Source of the DNA: a virus
Lineage: Duplodnaviria; Heunggongvirae; Uroviricota; Caudoviricetes
Direction: 5' to 3' (one strand)
Length of the DNA: 64,000 bases
Virus record (IMG/VR): IMGVR_UViG_2778261631_000002
Below the pieces are notes generated by a model. That model was given only the letters and a program-made list of their open reading frames with translations, ran no database searches and was not told where the DNA came from. A program made the translations under genes and the position numbers. Shown here one piece after another: positions 22,960-30,683 of the stretch. Each line of letters opens with the position of its first letter. Position 1 is the first letter of the stretch.

Positions 22960-24329
22960 TAATAATCCTCTTGCCAGTCAGCACCGGCATAGTTATCAAA
23001 CCGTGAGTATTGGCCGTTAAAAGCCAATCTCACCGTGCCAATTGGGCCATTTCGTTGCTTTCCGATAATTACCTCGGCAATGCCCTTCATTTCGCTATCC
23101 GGGTGATAAACTTCGTCGCGATACAGAAACATGATCAGGTCTGCGTCCTGCTCAATTGCTCCTGATTCACGTAAATCTGAATTTACCGGCCGTTTGTCCG
23201 CACGCTGTTCAAGCGATCGATTAAGTTGTGACAATGCCACCACCGGTACTTGTAATTCCTTCGCCAACGCCTTCAGTGAGCGAGAAATCTCGGCAATTTC
23301 CAGCGTTCGGTTATCTTGCAGCTCGGGGACGCGCATAAGTTGCAGGTAGTCGATCATAATCATGCTCAAACCACCATTTTCTTTATAAATACGACGAGCG
23401 CGGGAACGTAGCTCTGTCGGCGTCAGGGCACTTGAGTCATCAATAAAAATATTCTGCTTGTCCAACAGAATCCCCATTGCGCCAGAAACCCGCGCCCAAT
23501 CCTCGTCGTTAAGTTGCCCTGTTCGAATACGAGTCTGATCAACGCGTGCAAGAGAAGCCAGTGAGCGCATCATCAGCTGGTGGCTCGGCATCTCAAGGCT
23601 AAAAACCAATACTGGCTTATCGTTACGGACTGCGGCATTTTCGACGAGATTCATCGCAAACGTAGTCTTCCCCATCGATGGGCGGGCGGCGACAATAATG
23701 AGATCGGACGCCTGAAGTCCTGCCGTCTTCTTATTGAGATCGGTAAATCCGGTATCAAGCCCCGTTACACCATCATGCGGTCGCTGAAACAACTCTTCTA
23801 TGCGAGATACCGTTGCATCGAGAATGCTGGCGATATCTTTTGGACCACTACCGCTCTTTTGTCGTTTTTCAGCTATTTCAAAAACGCGGCGCTCGGCCAT
23901 ATCCAGCAATTCATTGCTGCCCCGGCCATCCTGCGCATATCCAGCTTCAGCTATTTCATTTGCGACGGAAATCATTTCACGAACAACCGCGCGTTCACGA
24001 ACGATATCCGCATAAGCACAAATATTTGCCGCGCTGGGCGTGTTCTTTGACATCTCCGCAAGGTACGCAAAACCACCGGCGCGTTCTAATTTACCGTTCT
24101 GTTCAAGTGCTTCAGCAAGTGTTATCAAATCAATCGGTTTGCCATGACTTAATAACCTCTCCATCTCACTGAAAATTTCACGATGAGCACTGGTATAAAA
24201 ATCATCAGCAACTATACGATCTGCAACTTCATCCCAGCGGCAGTTATCAAGCATTAAGCCACCAAGCACAGCTTGTTCTGCACTAAGGGAATTTGGCATG
24301 GATTCAAGAGGGGATGCAGACATTAACAC
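22959..24329 (-). CDS. ban: Ban, DnaB-family replicative helicase (456 aa)
   Basis: DnaB N-terminal domain and RecA-like core with Walker A (GKT) and Walker B motifs; context matches P1 ban. Confidence 0.85.
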   Translation of the reverse strand: MLMSASPLESMPNSLSAEQAVLGGLMLDNCRWDEVADRIVADDFYTSAHREIFSEMERLLSHGKPIDLITLAEALEQNGKLERAGGFAYLAEMSKNTPSAANICAYADIVRERAVVREMISVANEIAEAGYAQDGRGSNELLDMAERRVFEIAEKRQKSGSGPKDIASILDATVSRIEELFQRPHDGVTGLDTGFTDLNKKTAGLQASDLIIVAARPSMGKTTFAMNLVENAAVRNDKPVLVFSLEMPSHQLMMRSLASLARVDQTRIRTGQLNDEDWARVSGAMGILLDKQNIFIDDSSALTPTELRSRARRIYKENGGLSMIMIDYLQLMRVPELQDNRTLEIAEISRSLKALAKELQVPVVALSQLNRSLEQRADKRPVNSDLRESGAIEQDADLIMFLYRDEVYHPDSEMKGIAEVIIGKQRNGPIGTVRLAFNGQYSRFDNYAGADWQEDY

Positions 24330-24609
24330 TCCATCCTGGTGTGCTGAATGTCAGATATAATCGGCATACTCAAATCACTCCTAACGATATGAGTCATCAC
24401 CAGAAAATCAGGATTAATGCGCCGGACTCTTCCCGGCTGTCACACCGAATCGCCAGGATGGTGAATCCCTTTACCCGAAAAACAACAAACGGTGGCTTGC
24501 ACATTCCGGCTACCTGGTTCGTTGCCTGAGCTAGGGGCAAGGTTCCCCCCTTTTAACGTCACCAGACCGCTAACGACGCATGTGCCAGACGCCGTGTTAC
24601 AACCAAATG

Positions 24610-24685
24610 TGGTGGCCCCTACCGGACTTGAACCGGTGACCGTGCGATTATGAGTCGCCAGCTCTAACCACTGAGCTAAGGGGCC
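24610..24685 (-). tRNA. tRNA with anticodon CAU (Met, or Ile2 lysidine-type as P1 trnI)
   Basis: Cloverleaf GGCCCCT acceptor, GTGG D-loop, CUCAUAA anticodon loop, TTCAAGT T-loop, CCA end; 76 nt. Confidence 0.8.
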
Positions 24686-24688
24686 GGA

Positions 24689-24796
24689 TTACTGTTTACT
24701 AAGTGCTTCAATGGCGCTAACAATGCCGCCTACAACTATGGCAACAATAATAATGAGAACAATTGGATACTTGTCAGCAAAATCCCAGAAGCCCAT
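24689..24796 (-). CDS. Small membrane protein, 35 aa (P1 tciC-like position)
   Basis: ATG overlaps the stop of the upstream small ORF (TGATG); hydrophobic core PIVLIIIVAIVVGGIV. Confidence 0.4.
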   Translation of the reverse strand: MGFWDFADKYPIVLIIIVAIVVGGIVSAIEALSKQ

Positions 24797-24960
24797 CACT
24801 GATCCTTCGAAGCTATTTTAAATATCGGCCATACCAATGTTACAGCTACTGCCACCAACGCCCCGTCCGATAAAACTGACAGGATTGTGCTGGTGAAATC
24901 CACCAGCACGGACAGCAAGAGAAAACCAATGGCGATTGCGATACGTGCCTTGCTTGTCAT
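24796..24960 (-). CDS. Small membrane protein, 54 aa (P1 tciB-like position)
   Basis: ATG overlaps the tciA stop (TAATG); hydrophobic segments. Confidence 0.4.
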   Translation of the reverse strand: MTSKARIAIAIGFLLLSVLVDFTSTILSVLSDGALVAVAVTLVWPIFKIASKDQ

Positions 24961-25394
24961 TACAGATAATCTTCCACACGAAGACCTAAACGACGGCCTA
25001 CTTCTTCCAGTACTTTGTGTTCTGCTGGCTCGATTTCACCGTCCGCTTCTGCAATTGTCAGCATGTTAACGAATACTTCTTCCGCTTCTTTTGGATCGTT
25101 TTTGATATCTTCAATTTCGCGAAGGATATTCATGCGACCAACACGGAAGCCAGCTTCCAGTTGCTCGGTAAAGCGGGTAATTGTTGCAGTAATTTCGTTA
25201 CCAAAATGACTAAGACGCGGATTAGAGCGGACAAGCTGATCAAGTTTCGCTGTTTCTTCTTTTTCGATTTCACCATCAGCGGCAGACACCAACAAACAGC
25301 CACCGATAATGGCCTCCATCAGATCGCGATTCTCAACTTTTTTCAGCTCTACTTTTGCAGAAGCGACTTTCTTGCCGAACAATTTACCGAACAT
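24960..25394 (-). CDS. tciA: TerB-like tellurite-resistance-family protein (144 aa)
   Basis: TerB-like repeats (...AADGEIEKEE... / ...EADGEIEPAEH...); lies upstream of ban as P1 tciA does. Confidence 0.65.
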   Translation of the reverse strand: MFGKLFGKKVASAKVELKKVENRDLMEAIIGGCLLVSAADGEIEKEETAKLDQLVRSNPRLSHFGNEITATITRFTEQLEAGFRVGRMNILREIEDIKNDPKEAEEVFVNMLTIAEADGEIEPAEHKVLEEVGRRLGLRVEDYL

Positions 25395-25418
25395 TGGTTA
25401 TCCCTCAATAAAAGTGAC

Positions 25419-25435
25419 ATATTTATTAGATTGCG
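25419..25435 (-). promoter_or_regulatory. Possible C1 operator-like site upstream of tciA
   Basis: Minus strand CGCAATCTAATAAATAT, 11/17 (the 3' part matches). Confidence 0.3.
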
Positions 25436-25559
25436 GTGCCGGGTTCCTCCCGGTGTCCTTTGGCTGGTTATCCACCGTGGACGTGGAAACAAGGAGAAAT
25501 AATGGACAGATATAACCATTTCCCCGCGTGCGCTTAGCCGCATTCACCGCAACGGAAAG

Positions 25560-26320
25560 AGCATTCTTGGTGGACCTGTAGATTGGGATATGAACCCGTT
25601 ACAGGAGAATGCTCTTACCTGTTACGTGCTCCGTTTCGTGGAGCTAACGGCGGGTGATCGGGCCGCACCAGACTGGACTTATTTCAGCGTTATGCTCATG
25701 CCAGAGAATCAAACTGTGATGGTCGGTGCTGAACTCCGACACAGGGTTGTAGCAAGCCCCGCAAAGCGCGCACTACTGTAGTTGCGGCACATCAGCCTGT
25801 GCATTCACCACAATGTTGAGAACACTGGTTGTCACGCTGCAACGCAACATTTATTCGTAGATTGGGATATGACCCCGTTACGCCAGTGTTCTCAACGTTG
25901 TAGTGCCGGTTACGGTTCCGGCCAGGCCTCTTCCTCAACGGGGTGTTCTCCATACGGACTACCGTTTATTGGTCGTTCCTGCGGTTTATGTTGTGAAGCC
26001 AGATGCTTATCTTCTGGTTGCTTCAAAGAGCTGCACTTCATCACAACGGTAAGAGCACTCGATGCATTTAAGCCAAGCCCCATAAGGGAGAATGCCCTTA
26101 CCTGTTGTGTTGTGATGACCGGTGCTGATCTCCGGCTTGCGGTTATTTCAGACTCTCACGGGCGTTTAATTGCCCCGCCGAACAGCTCTTTTCCGCAATA
26201 GCTGCAATGTCTTTCGCGCATCAGCCTGCGCATTCATCACAACGGTAAGGGTACTTCGTAGGGATTCGAACCCTCTGCCAAGCTCGGCGATCTCCGACGT
26301 CGCAAAATACCCTTACCTGT
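25560..26320. repeat. Non-coding block of repeats and long inverted repeats with tRNA-like T-arm fragments
   Basis: Recurring GTAGATTGGGATATGA(A/C)CCCGTTAC units (about 25566 and 25850); inverted repeats CACAACGGTAAGGG...CCCTTACCTGTTGTG enclosing GGGTTCGAATCCC (26240-26318) and similar at 26037-26112 and 25810-25900; no convincing ORF. Confidence 0.5.
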
Positions 26321-26325
26321 TGTGC

Positions 26326-26401
26326 TGGTGCCGATTAACGGACTCGAACCGCTGACATCCTGCTTACAAGGCAGGCGCTCTACCAACTGAGCTAAACCGG
26401 C
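26326..26401 (-). tRNA. tRNA-Thr (anticodon UGU)
   Basis: 76-nt cloverleaf GCCGGTTTAGCTCAGTTGGTAGAGC...CUUGUAA loop...GGTTCGAGTCC...CCA. Confidence 0.85.
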
Positions 26402-26403
26402 AT

Positions 26404-26479
26404 TGGCGATGGTGGATGGATTTGAACCATCGACCCGTTGATTAACAGTCAACCGCTCTAACCGCTGAGCTACACCATC
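26404..26479 (-). tRNA. tRNA-Asn (anticodon GUU)
   Basis: 76-nt cloverleaf GATGGTG acceptor, CUGUUAA anticodon loop, GGTTCAAATCC T-arm; 2 nt from tRNA-Thr. Confidence 0.85.
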
Positions 26480-26943
26480 ACTTGCCGGGTACGTCTCCGG
26501 CGAGGGCTTCCACCTCCGTATGCTTTTCGGCGCACCGCGCCCTGGCTGCAATTCGGTAACAGGGGATGCACAACCCTGGCTTCCAGCGTGATTAGCGCCT
26601 TCAGCATGACGGGATATACCCGTAAATTCGTGGAACTGTACCCAAAGTGCTGTTAAGCACCGCTGTTACGCTGAAAAGAAAACGCAACAGGAAAGGACGC
26701 TGACCAACAGATGGCCCCTTCTCGTTCATCTGGTTAATCACACCAGCGCCCTTACCTGTTGTGCCTCCCCGTTCCCTAATACACAGACGGGGACACTCTG
26801 CGGTCGATTTTTTGACGGGGGACGACTCATACCCCGTGGCATCTGGCTTCTTAGGCCGCTACCATCATCAGATCATCGTTTGCATTTACTTTAATGGTCA
26901 GTTTCTAAACCGCCGCAAAGTCGCTAACCATGACGAAAACCCT

Positions 26944-26970
26944 GAAAAAAACGCCCACCCGAAGATGGGC
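26944..26970 (-). terminator. Rho-independent terminator with UUCG tetraloop, about 180 nt downstream of dmt
   Basis: Minus strand GCCCAUC-UUCG-GGUGGGC followed by GUUUUUUU. Confidence 0.6.
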
Positions 26971-27144
26971 AAACTGGAAGCTCGTAACGCACTTCGGCGT
27001 TGCCACTTAGGCGCATGGTCAACCTGGCAACTCGGTGGTTTGTCTGGGAGGACTAGGCCCAGCCATGCTTACCGCCGCGCCTGTCGCGGCTAACAGCTAA
27101 ATCGCTCTATAAATCACGATTCATTGAGGCGATATTACACTAAT

Positions 27145-27161
27145 AAATTTATTAGAGCAAT
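27145..27161 (-). promoter_or_regulatory. C1 operator, exact consensus, overlapping the dmt stop
   Basis: Minus strand ATTGCTCTAATAAATTT, 17/17. Confidence 0.65.
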
Positions 27162-29416
27162 ATACCCAAAACGTCATGAGCTACACCTCGAGTGTCCCCC
27201 TTACAAGACACAGAACGTCTGGCAAAAAGAGGTTCCACTCTGAAGCCACTGTCATGATAAAGCTCTCTGATGTTTGGCGCGCCACTGTTAGTAATGAGAA
27301 CCTTTGCACCTCGACGATGAGCATCCGTCAACAGAGACACCAGGCGTTTTTGCTCTTCAAACTTAAAGTCATGACCGGAATAGTTCGTGAATCCCTCTGT
27401 ATTTGGAAGCGGTTCATACGGCGGATCGCAAAAGATGACATCTCCTTCTCCGGCAGCTTCAATCACCGCTGCAAAATCACCGCATACAAACTCAGACCGC
27501 CCTTCCGCACCGAGGAAGGCTTCCATCTCCTGTAATGGGAAATACGGAGTTTTATACTTCCCATAACCGACATTGAACTCACCGGCCTGGTTGTAACGCG
27601 TCAATCCGTTAAAACAATGTCGGTTCAGGAACAAAAACGCCGCTGCGCGATGTAAATCATCATAGACTTGTTTGTTAAACGCATTCCGTACTGCCAGGTA
27701 TCCTTCCTGTGTGTTGTAGTCCTGGAAGAAACGATGTGCCAGAGTGATAAGTGAATGCGCCTCGCGTTGCAGAGTCTTGTAAAAGTTAATCAGGTCAGCA
27801 TTCACATCATTTAGCAGATTTTCCTGGTATCCGGCATTCATGAAGACAGCTCCGCCACCAACGAAAGGTTCAATCAGGCGCTTCCCTTCTGGCAAATAGC
27901 GAAAGATTTGTTCCAGAACACCAAATTTTCCACCAGCCCATTTGAATATGGACCGTTCGAATTCTGCCGCTGGTTTAACTTTTCGCTCTTTTGTTTCACT
28001 TCCTTCTTTCTGCCGACATACGGCCTTAGTAATCCGATCGCCAATCCAGCGCATTACTGGTATTGCCATACTATTGCCGATCGCTTTGTAACGCGGTCCG
28101 TCAGCTGCAAGCATCGCGGCCTCTTCTTCGCTTAAATCTGGATAGTGATTGCGAAGATATGCCAGTTCATCTGAATTAACTTTTTTACGCTTTTCCGTCG
28201 GGATCAACGTATGCCCATCAGGAAAACCTTGCAGCCTTTCACATTCGACAGGGGTAAGACGGCGGACAGCTACTTCTGCGTTTCTTACTTCATAGCAAAC
28301 AGCTGTTGGATTTTTAGCCATTAGAGATGGTGAAGTATTCTTAGTTGCAGCATGTTGTGTACCGCTCATACGCTCAGGAAAAGCCAATGTAACAAGATGC
28401 TCATGGCTTTCTTGCTCACGTGCCCGCAATGTACCATGCCCTTCTGACCAAAAACCTGCTCCTGTGCTGCTAAAAACGGCAAGGTCAGTGGCATCTTTAA
28501 AATCTCTTGCCTTTACTGTCGATGCGGTTTCATCGTCAATATATTCCCCAAATGCCGCCATCCTGAAACCGTTTACGGCTTTCGTCGATTTCATACCGGG
28601 AGACATGCCAGCGTGTAGGCATGGATTTAGGCTTTCGCCACTGATTGCAGCGCCATTTGCAGTAATGGCGGAAGCGATTTCCTTCTTTTTTCGGCTCGGC
28701 GCAATATTCCGGCGCACGCCTTCGAACTCAAAAAGTACCGTTGCGGGATCGAGGTCTGTTCGAGCACTTGCGACAACAAACACGCGTCGGCGTCGTTGTG
28801 CCACTCCGAAGTATTGGGCATCAAGGATTCTCCAGGCCACCTTTCGCTGCGGTCCATAAATACAACCACACTGCGGCCACTTTGGAACATGGCAACCGGT
28901 TTTGCCATCCCACCGCCAGAACGCGTTGCTTTTTCCTGATTCAGGTCGATCACCTGGTTCAAATGGCACATCTTCTCCAGCCAATCCGGCAAGGAAACAT
29001 CCGAAGGCGTTATCTGCGGATGACAAGACTCCTGGGACATTTTCCCAGACGATAACGGCTGGTTTGAGAAATGACTCAGCCCGTTTGTCGTCAATTGCAT
29101 TTGCAAGCTCCACATACTTTAAAGTTAGCGCGCCACGCTCATCATCAAGCCCACCACGTAAGCCCGCGATACTGAATGCCTGACAAGGTGTTCCCCCGAC
29201 GAGCACATCAGGGGATTCGATTTCCCCAGCCAGGACTTTTTTGGCAAGTTTTGTCATGTCGCCAAGGTTGGCGACATGGGGCCAGCGGTGCGCAAGAACG
29301 GCAGATGGAAAAGACTCGATTTCAGCAAACCACACCGGACGCATACCCAACGGTTCCCAGGCAATACTCGCGGCTTCAATTCCACTGCAAACAGATCCAT
29401 AGCACAGCTCTTTCAC
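27152..29416 (-). CDS. dmt: Dmt, fused C5-cytosine and N6-adenine (Dam-like) DNA methyltransferase (754 aa)
   Basis: N-terminal C5-MTase motifs ([17 protein letters not shown]); C-terminal Dam-like region with DPPY. Confidence 0.8.
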
Positions 29417-30318: not shown

Positions 30319-30667
30319 GTTGTAACCCTTGAATATCAACCACAGAAAGCTCGTCTTTATAGAAAAAGGCCAAGTTGTGGCACCCCCTCGTTTGAGCGTA
30401 TGAGCTGGGACCAATTTCGTTCTTCCAGACAAATGGCTTCAAATCCGTACGGCGAAGCATAAAAACGCGATTTGTTCCGCTCTGATTCCCAATGAGGCAA
30501 AAGCCTTCTTTCACCTTGATAGCCTGCAAGTTGTCGAGTTCACCGCTGGTTACACGGCTATCGAACTCCTTGCGGCTTATTAGCTCCATCTGCATCTGAC
30601 GACTCCAAACAAATGCCCATTGAAGGGCGATGGCTGAATGGTACCGAAAACACGATATAAAAAACAA
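30311..30667 (-). CDS. Hypothetical protein upstream of hrdC (start uncertain, possibly the internal MQMELIS)
   Basis: First ORF after the C1 operator at 30667. Confidence 0.45.
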
Positions 30668-30683
30668 TATTTATTAGAGCAAT
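30667..30683 (-). promoter_or_regulatory. C1 operator upstream of the hrdC-dmt operon, in a divergent region
   Basis: Minus strand ATTGCTCTAATAAATAT, 16/17. Confidence 0.6.

Follow-up and report, generated by a model that had tools for sequence, protein, structure and literature searches.

The 'dicF-like' leader of the phage P1 ban operon shares a covarying, pseudoknotted domain with the long DicF RNA of Qin-type prophages

The leader of the ban operon of phage P1, which bears the label 'dicF-like region' in the P1 record, was analyzed in a window of 64,000 nucleotides from a virus of the class Caudoviricetes (IMG/VR record IMGVR_UViG_2778261631_000002; positions refer to this window and to its minus strand unless (+) is given). 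The 1-kb stretch around the operator and terminator of this leader is 99.8% identical to phage P1. With a probability of roughly 60%, the P1 leader represents the counterpart of the 'long DicF' RNA of Qin-type prophages, having the same 5' domain, a corresponding position at a repressor-controlled promoter and an ending at an intrinsic terminator, with the domain acting as a scaffold. On sequence grounds, P1 and Escherichia coli share the 5' domain of the long DicF RNA and not the 53-nt regulator, and the 'dicF-like' label of P1 thus denotes the 5' domain of the DicF precursor rather than DicF itself. The operator, the promoter and the label are already known, so that the element as first described is not a new discovery. 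New are the meaning of the label, the covarying pseudoknotted domain and the P1 variant which joins this domain to a primary start and a minimal terminator. The reading is built on sequence features, homology, covarying structure and synteny; where the transcript starts and stops, that it is partly read through and what the domain does are inferred from these.

The relationship to the DicF precursor became apparent in a sensitive blastn search with positions 26930-27135 against 5,426 complete E. coli genomes, 4,428 of which contained chromosomal matches of ~78% identity, all confined to window positions 27089-26995. In strain K-12, the match is located directly upstream of DicF, between ydfC and dicB. 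Accordingly, positions 27098-26979 are homologous to a domain of ~130 nt preceding DicF in Qin-type prophages, which is termed here the pre-DicF element (PDE; 26979..27098) and was delimited by the blastn matches to E. coli, a covariance model and pair counts. The 'dicF-like region' of the P1 record, a misc_feature mapped onto the window through model hits, covers 26936..27037. In E. coli, two DicF species occur, one of 190 nt with an RNase III-dependent 5' end and one of 53 nt made by RNase E (Ragunathan et al., 2023, PMC10448788). The 190-nt species was detected on Northern blots, and the transcript ending at dicF was the main species in the wild type (PMC10448788). Cleavage by these RNases at the domain borders is documented solely for K-12. 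Counting 190 nt back from the DicF terminator leads to within ~6 nt of the first base of the domain, at its outer helix.

DicF proper was not found in the window. The Rfam model RF00039 gave no P1 match at E<=1 over 24000-28000 and none at E<=10 over 26900-27170 (271 nt), and the same search detected K-12 DicF at 76.7 bits (L002:3122-3173), which rules out DicF proper as the identity of the P1 region. Other Rfam families (RyhB, isrB, nuoG) reached only sub-threshold scores driven by the terminator hairpin, and no Rfam family was matched by the P1 copy of the domain. The GGCGG...CCGCC terminator stem of DicF variants is not present in P1, where the stem is GCCCAUC/GGUGGGC, whereas all members of the domain family outside P1 feature GGCGG-type stems. 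As this unrelated stem follows only 8 nt after the outer helix, the DicF module appears to have been replaced in P1. With the DicF seed and terminator part exchanged for an unrelated minimal terminator, repression of ftsZ is not expected. The complementarity of the P1 3' module to ftsZ (-28.9 kcal/mol, shuffle mean -33.2) was no better than that of shuffled sequence in a test of low power, in which genuine DicF itself only reached the 15th percentile. Previous searches of phage databases revealed no significant matches to DicF or DicB (Balasubramanian et al., 2016), consistent with a P1 that lacks DicF proper. A specific discussion of the P1 dicF-like region or of Pban transcripts did not surface in the searchable literature.

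The 190-nt RNA of Qin and the P1 RNA feature a homologous 5' domain (~78% identity, 92-bit model match), a similar length, an end at an intrinsic terminator and a repressor-controlled early operon that continues beyond it. They differ in that P1 is devoid of the DicF part (no RF00039 match) and ends in an unrelated terminator stem. Moreover, the P1 RNA is predicted to begin at a primary start and to carry an additional hairpin there, whereas the 5' end of the Qin long DicF is an RNase III cut.

The proposed fold of the family is a multi-helix pseudoknot closed by an outer helix of 8 bp. In P1, the outer helix pairs ~27098-27089 with 26990-26979 and encloses the small G+C hairpin H0 (27089-27085/27079-27075), the 6-bp pseudoknot H1 formed by the strand that follows H0 with the H3 loop (27068-27063/27018-27013), the variable hairpin H2 with its pyrimidine-rich loop (27062-27058/27048-27044) and the 9-bp helix H3 (27033-27025/27005-26997). 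All pairs of H0, H1, H2 and H3 form in P1 except one A.G in H3. The covariance model R1 matched P1 at full length over 26983-27096 (92 bits, E 6e-27), its training alignment of 65 sequences including the P1 window sequence and two close P1-like sequences. In an alignment of 75 distinct sequences, whose fitting took H0, H2 and H3 into account and left H1 aside, 96% of the cells were paired and both sides had changed in 9 pairs, compared with 2.8 +/- 1.1 after shuffling (9 being reached in 0/500 shuffles) and with 0-2 in slid controls. The outer helix was 99.3% paired on a plain MAFFT alignment unfitted to structure, with one-side variation in 6 pairs and one covarying pair (C-G to U-A). RNAalifold yielded a poor structure without compensatory pairs on the raw MAFFT alignment, and a manual structure with a model-based alignment was used instead. 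Compensatory pairs in H3 were contributed by Izhakiella (three) and Citrobacter (one).

Within the P1 lineage, the pseudoknot reads GCAUGG/CCAUGC in P1 and GUAUGG/CCAUAC in P7, a compensatory exchange which is accompanied by a re-made H2. Apart from these changes, the stretch from the operator through the terminator is invariant between both phages in an alignment of six P1-like sequences. There is thus good reason to regard the fold as being under selection in P1-type phages as well. Besides, the H2 stems change freely, both at 27044-27062 and family-wide, and the loop always contains a pyrimidine run (UCCUU, CUCC, CUUU) resembling an anti-Shine-Dalgarno sequence. The H2 loop may be a contact site for mRNA or protein.

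These compensatory changes also bear on the rather improbable reading that the P1 leader has no dedicated function. The terminator would then be the leaky end terminator of the uhr-hrdC-dmt operon, the leader an inherited dicBF-type fragment and the short RNA a by-product. Such a reading would account for the missing DicF, for a single-stranded region of merely 8 nt, for the failure to find targets and for the state of phage D6, which has lost the domain core; a fragment colinear with the dicB leader (see below) further suggests a remodelled ancestral operon. Nevertheless, the differences between the P1-type and Qin-type sequences (22% divergence), including those between P1 and K-12, are compensatory in H1, H2 and H3, and the compensatory P1/P7 alleles with their invariant flanks point to continued selection on the fold.

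It is extremely unlikely that the interval is protein-coding on the opposite strand. An open reading frame (ORF) of 110 aa does exist at 26761-27093(+), and SJ46 as well as some lambdoid records list it as a hypothetical protein. Still, the ORFs overlapping the domain on either strand had no PHROG or Pfam match, indels of 1 nt and 4 nt occur inside the frame among close relatives, the substitutions track base pairing and not codons, and the curated P1 record has no coding sequence here. ORFs annotated as 'hypothetical protein' lie over the domain in PV340562, LR597641, NC_009514, MF807953 and further records, and those in the lambdoid phage records are probably spurious gene calls.

Upstream of the domain, the element is the known C1-repressed promoter-operator of the P1 ban operon, comprising P1ban and the bivalent operator Oban (Op72ab). 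C1 repression at Op72 is established knowledge. The minus-strand sequence of the region reads GGTATATTGCTCTAATAAATTTATTAGTGTAATATCGCC. The initial annotation had reported an exact C1 operator over the dmt stop, an associated promoter and a textbook terminator ~180 nt downstream on the same strand, all of which are borne out here, but had missed the inverted operator half, the known identity of operator and promoter and the 'dicF-like region' label. The ORF of the DNA methyltransferase gene dmt (754 codons, 27152..29416; taken from the ORF list and annotated in AF234172) ends with a TAA stop at 27154-27152 inside the operator. Oban-a (former Op72a), annotated as protein_bind in the P1 and P7 records, occupies 27145..27161 and matches the asymmetric 17-bp C1 consensus ATTGCTCTAATAAATTT at 17/17 positions, being the sole site without mismatch in the window. 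Oban-b (former Op72b; ATTACACTAATAAATTT), found by the operator scan and present in the P1 record, lies inverted at 27134..27150 (+) with 15/17 matches. The two halves overlap by 6 bp, resulting in a bivalent operator.

The promoter P1ban (27132..27160) was placed by transferring the coordinates of the 'sigma 70 promoter P1ban' of the P1 record and consists of a -35 element TTGCTC (27160-27155), a 17-nt spacer and a -10 element TAATAT (27137-27132). All three parts are covered by the two operator halves, an arrangement in which C1 would be expected to block initiation. P2ban (27146..27177, coordinates transferred) is only 'predicted' in the P1 record. Together with these promoters, the record (AF234172/NC_005856) lists Obanab (former Op72ab), which 'controls expression of ban', and the 'dicF-like region', followed by tRNA-Asn, tRNA-Thr, tciABC, tRNA-Ile and ban in this order. 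The gene ban is located 2.6 kb downstream of its controlling operator, and in the P7 record the same operator controls the tRNAs too. The window agrees with the ban control region of this record in the identical sequence, in the position over the dmt stop and in the bivalent operator over the promoter; in the record, a terminator is not listed here and the leader is given no description beyond 'dicF-like region'. Across the window, 10 C1-operator sites with <=3 mismatches were found, compared with 0.35 expected, a number reached in 0/100 shuffles. Beyond the two Oban halves, these are eight sites with 1-3 mismatches at 2285, 11308, 13400, 13449, 17073, 30667, 46231 and 47901, and that at 30667-30683 corresponds to Odmt/Op68 upstream of uhr-hrdC-dmt.

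The intrinsic terminator (26945..26970), identified by terminator scan and fold energy, is composed of the 5' arm GCCCATC (26970-26964), the loop TTCG (26963-26960), the 3' arm GGTGGGC (26959-26953), a single G and an uninterrupted T7 (26951-26945). In the RNA, this corresponds to the hairpin GCCCAUC-UUCG-GGUGGGC with 7 bp (5 G-C) and a free energy of -12.8 kcal/mol. From the dmt stop to the tRNA genes, this strand contains no other strong terminator-like site. As the number of terminator-like sites over the scanned 6-kb region is at chance level (8 vs 6.6 expected), the case for it is based on its quality and conservation: the stem-loop is invariant in P1, P7, SJ46, pE2-2 and D6, with a U tract of 6-8.

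A C1-controlled RNA of ~181 nt (26945..27125) is therefore likely on the basis of the predicted ends and of the homology to the 190-nt DicF species. Its start is predicted at ~27125 (an A), as derived from the annotated -10 element of P1ban, and its 3' end at ~26945. It would comprise a 5'-terminal hairpin (UGAAUCGU...GCGAUUUA, 27098..27123), the domain, a single-stranded linker of 8 nt read directly from the sequence (UCCAGUUU, 26971..26978) and the terminator. The 5' hairpin was found in the minimum free energy (MFE) and centroid folds, is specific to the P1 lineage and almost invariant, since the six aligned P1-like sequences vary at only one loop position. Of the two consequences drawn in the initial annotation, the short RNA of ~180 nt has become plausible as a discrete species because the interval shows homology to the 5' domain found in the 190-nt DicF and has a conserved, covarying structure, its start and end being predictions. 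The regulated antitermination of the tRNA-tci-ban unit fared less well. The scan predicted no sigma-70-like promoter for this strand in the interval separating the terminator from the tRNA genes, and the records place ban and the tRNAs under operator control, so that some read-through is required, any regulation of it being hypothetical. P1 transcript data for this region did not turn up in the literature within reach.

Taken together, the following course of events is proposed. C1 bound to both operator halves would block P1ban. With C1 inactive, RNA polymerase would start near 27125, and the nascent RNA would successively expose the 5' hairpin (27123-27098), the closed pseudoknotted domain of ~120 nt, the 8 unpaired nucleotides and the strong intrinsic terminator. 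Owing to the C(UUCG)G loop, the five G-C pairs and the uninterrupted U7, most polymerases are expected to stop there, and the resulting RNA of ~181 nt would be stable, its two ends being shielded by structure. A minority would read through and generate the precursor of tRNA-Asn/Thr, tciABC, tRNA-Ile and ban. For transcripts of the Pdmt operon, no earlier terminator was found on their path, and those reading through should stop at the same terminator, possibly followed by trimming at the outer helix as occurs in E. coli. The conserved domain would serve a family of early small RNAs of phages as a scaffold for structure and processing.

The distribution and context of the domain were surveyed with copies gathered from viral contigs and from one genome per species. 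Genuine members were found only in Enterobacterales (Escherichia, Shigella, Citrobacter, Trabulsiella, Erwinia, Izhakiella), the remaining pattern matches being chance or coding. A terminator-like hairpin with a U run followed the domain in 67/69 distinct downstream sequences according to a crude scan, in 66 of them at 45-130 nt past H3. For the K-12 type, the scan stopped at +51 on a run of U within DicF, the terminator proper being located at +78. Of the two sequences missed by the scan, one has a terminator that can be recognized by eye and the other (L140) is degenerate. The terminator of lambdoid members is part of DicF or of a DicF variant having a GGCGG/CCGCC stem. The U run of P1 begins ~45 nt past the end of H3, with 8 nt separating the hairpin from the outer helix, and the domain is preceded by the C1 operator at a distance of ~60 nt. 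At most loci with enough flanking sequence in a tblastn survey, the domain is located on the same strand just after a DicA-/cI-type repressor gene, with or without ydfABC in between, and precedes dicB/ydfD or orf39/orf38-type genes.

This context raises the question of whether the domain could be a cis-acting processive antiterminator with a mechanism like that of the put RNAs of phage HK022, which counteract termination in cis via the beta' zinc-binding domain of RNA polymerase. Once transcribed, the P1-type domain would render the polymerase resistant to the following and to later terminators. Thereby, tRNA-tci-ban in P1 and dicB or orf39 and later genes in lambdoid phages would be expressed without an N protein. 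We consider this explanation unlikely, even though several observations would suit it. The domain is nearly always situated just upstream of an intrinsic terminator, the distal operon genes have no predicted promoter of their own, and P1 does not possess N and controls ban from an operator 2.6 kb upstream. Furthermore, in phage cdtI (L166 3650-4320), an intact lambdoid phage with the domain in its PL leader, the cI stop is followed by a terminator, a near-consensus PL (TTGACA-16-CATAAT), 280 nt, the domain, a terminator with an 11-bp stem and orf39 with the early-left genes. The domain of cdtI hence occupies the position which putL has in HK022 (PMC9378689). Upstream of the domain, no N-like arginine-rich ORF was found in cdtI or Qin, and the early-left operon of cdtI must therefore read through that terminator. 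P1 follows the same early-operon logic with C1 and Pban.

Several findings nevertheless argue against antitermination by the domain. The sequences of putL and putR were located in HK022, the immunity region of which gave no R1 match even at E<=10. Local alignments to putL/putR remained within the shuffle range (p 0.09-0.4), and a shared 9-mer (GCGCGGCGG) is within chance; homology to put was accordingly rejected. In addition, the domain forms a pseudoknotted junction instead of the two stem-loops of put. The R1 search revealed exactly one copy per element, and second copies, as expected of a putL/putR-like pair, were found neither in the window nor at any locus. The dicF-terminated transcript being the main species in wild-type E. 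coli (PMC10448788) is likewise difficult to reconcile with such a function, as is phage D6, where the terminator and downstream genes are kept without the domain core. The likeness between both RNAs consists in a structured RNA of ~70-130 nt in an early-operon leader upstream of terminators where no N gene is found; they differ in sequence, model match and fold, and in the single copy of the domain, whose action on RNA polymerase is purely hypothetical. The RfaH ops element (GGCGGTAGNNTG, non-template strand) was rejected as well, as agreement with the GGCGGTAAGCATGG of the domain is limited to the first 7 nt and the T at motif position 6 is altered in the P7 allele GGCGGCAAG.

The layout of promoter, closed structured domain and a terminator 8 nt later is also reminiscent of a riboswitch, and a pairing of CCGAAG (26996-26991) with the CUUCGG that tops the terminator is conceivable. 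However, a ligand- or factor-sensing attenuator in which the domain chooses between a terminator and an antiterminator fold is very unlikely. Elsewhere in the family, the terminator is a different, variable module 45-130 nt away, and a terminator not conserved along with the domain leaves no conserved expression platform. Moreover, the alternative pairing is short and specific to P1, and no Rfam riboswitch was matched. Lambda PR' 6S RNA and StxS of Stx phages are a further point of comparison, being transcribed from constitutive promoters with read-through switched by Q. With P1, they share a promoter-proximal terminator which generates a short RNA and whose read-through expresses distal genes; they differ from it in that the P1 promoter is controlled by a repressor, no antiterminator protein is known for P1 and the sequences are unrelated. 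According to PMC7547250, StxS illustrates that the by-product of a terminated leader can be a regulatory RNA.

Certain results weigh against the interpretation of the leader as the counterpart of the long DicF. The promoter P1ban matches the sigma-70 consensus at only 7/12 positions and was missed by the generic promoter scan, so that its assignment relies on the P1 record. The outer helix is imperfect in P1. An examination of folding and conservation of the interval, as proposed in the initial annotation, revealed the conserved covarying fold described above, but the MFE of the whole transcript was no better than that of shuffles (z = -1.04), a calculation which is blind to the pseudoknot. 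The start, the 3' end, the abundance and the fraction of read-through of the RNA are predictions. For a base-pairing small RNA, a single-stranded seed of 8 nt is odd, and no convincing target was found within the window, where matches of only 10-13 nt occurred at chance frequency, or at ftsZ. Finally, D6 contains no domain core, but an apparent remnant without H3 and the pseudoknot (5.2 bits, E 0.38). Since this phage keeps the terminator and the downstream genes, the domain is dispensable in at least one relative. In D6 (L162 2229-2290, 2503-2527), the terminator and downstream leader are preceded by a different upstream sequence, with pmgS adjacent instead of dmt.

Irrespective of the mechanism, the domain is widespread, structurally constrained and without Rfam match, and it heads early operons in many temperate Enterobacterales phages. 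That it constitutes a new class of functional phage RNA, occurring in ~80% of E. coli genomes, lambdoid phages and P1-type plasmid prophages, is a tentative idea to which we attach rather low odds. In one version, it would be an antiterminator, processive or terminator-specific, that consists of RNA only and has no sequence relationship to HK022 put, by which N-less early operons, including tRNA-tci-ban of P1, would pass the terminator of an embedded small RNA. In another, it would be a tRNA-like four-way-junction scaffold directing the release of early small RNAs by RNases III and E. If the C1-controlled RNA exists, P1 would possess a second immunity-linked RNA beside c4, with its synthesis switched directly by C1. 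This poses the question of how ban and the tRNAs are expressed past a near-ideal terminator at a distance of 180 nt from the only promoter predicted for them. For studies of the domain, P1 is the simplest system, as the domain directly follows a primary repressor-controlled start and is directly followed by the terminator.

Downstream of the terminator, read-through transcripts would cross a non-coding spacer of 465 nt (26480..26944) to reach tRNA-Asn (26404-26479) and tRNA-Thr (26326-26401). The spacer contains no annotated gene or predicted sigma-70 promoter, gave only weak tmRNA-like Rfam matches (24 bits, E 0.04) and is 92.7% conserved in the otherwise divergent D6. Further downstream, the 28 nt at 25524-25551 are 92.9% identical (E 4e-7) to the K-12 sequence just after DicF (L002:3195-3222). 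This dicB-leader match precedes tciA by ~40 nt, in the way that STnc100 precedes dicB, and is colinear with the pre-DicF domain, which gives the beginning of the ban operon the appearance of a dicBF-type operon that has been remodelled. Positions 25432-25551 gave a sub-threshold Rfam match to STnc100 (38 bits vs a gathering score of 47). The stretch from tRNA-Thr to tciA (25400-26330) comprises 932 nt, compared with 732 nt in the P1 c1.100 reference, and these additional ~200 bp indicate that the window originates from a P1-like variant and not from the reference genome. At 24610-24685, ARAGORN predicted a tRNA-Met (CAT), the homologue of which is listed in the P1 record as tRNA-Ile2 (lysidine type, similar to ileX).

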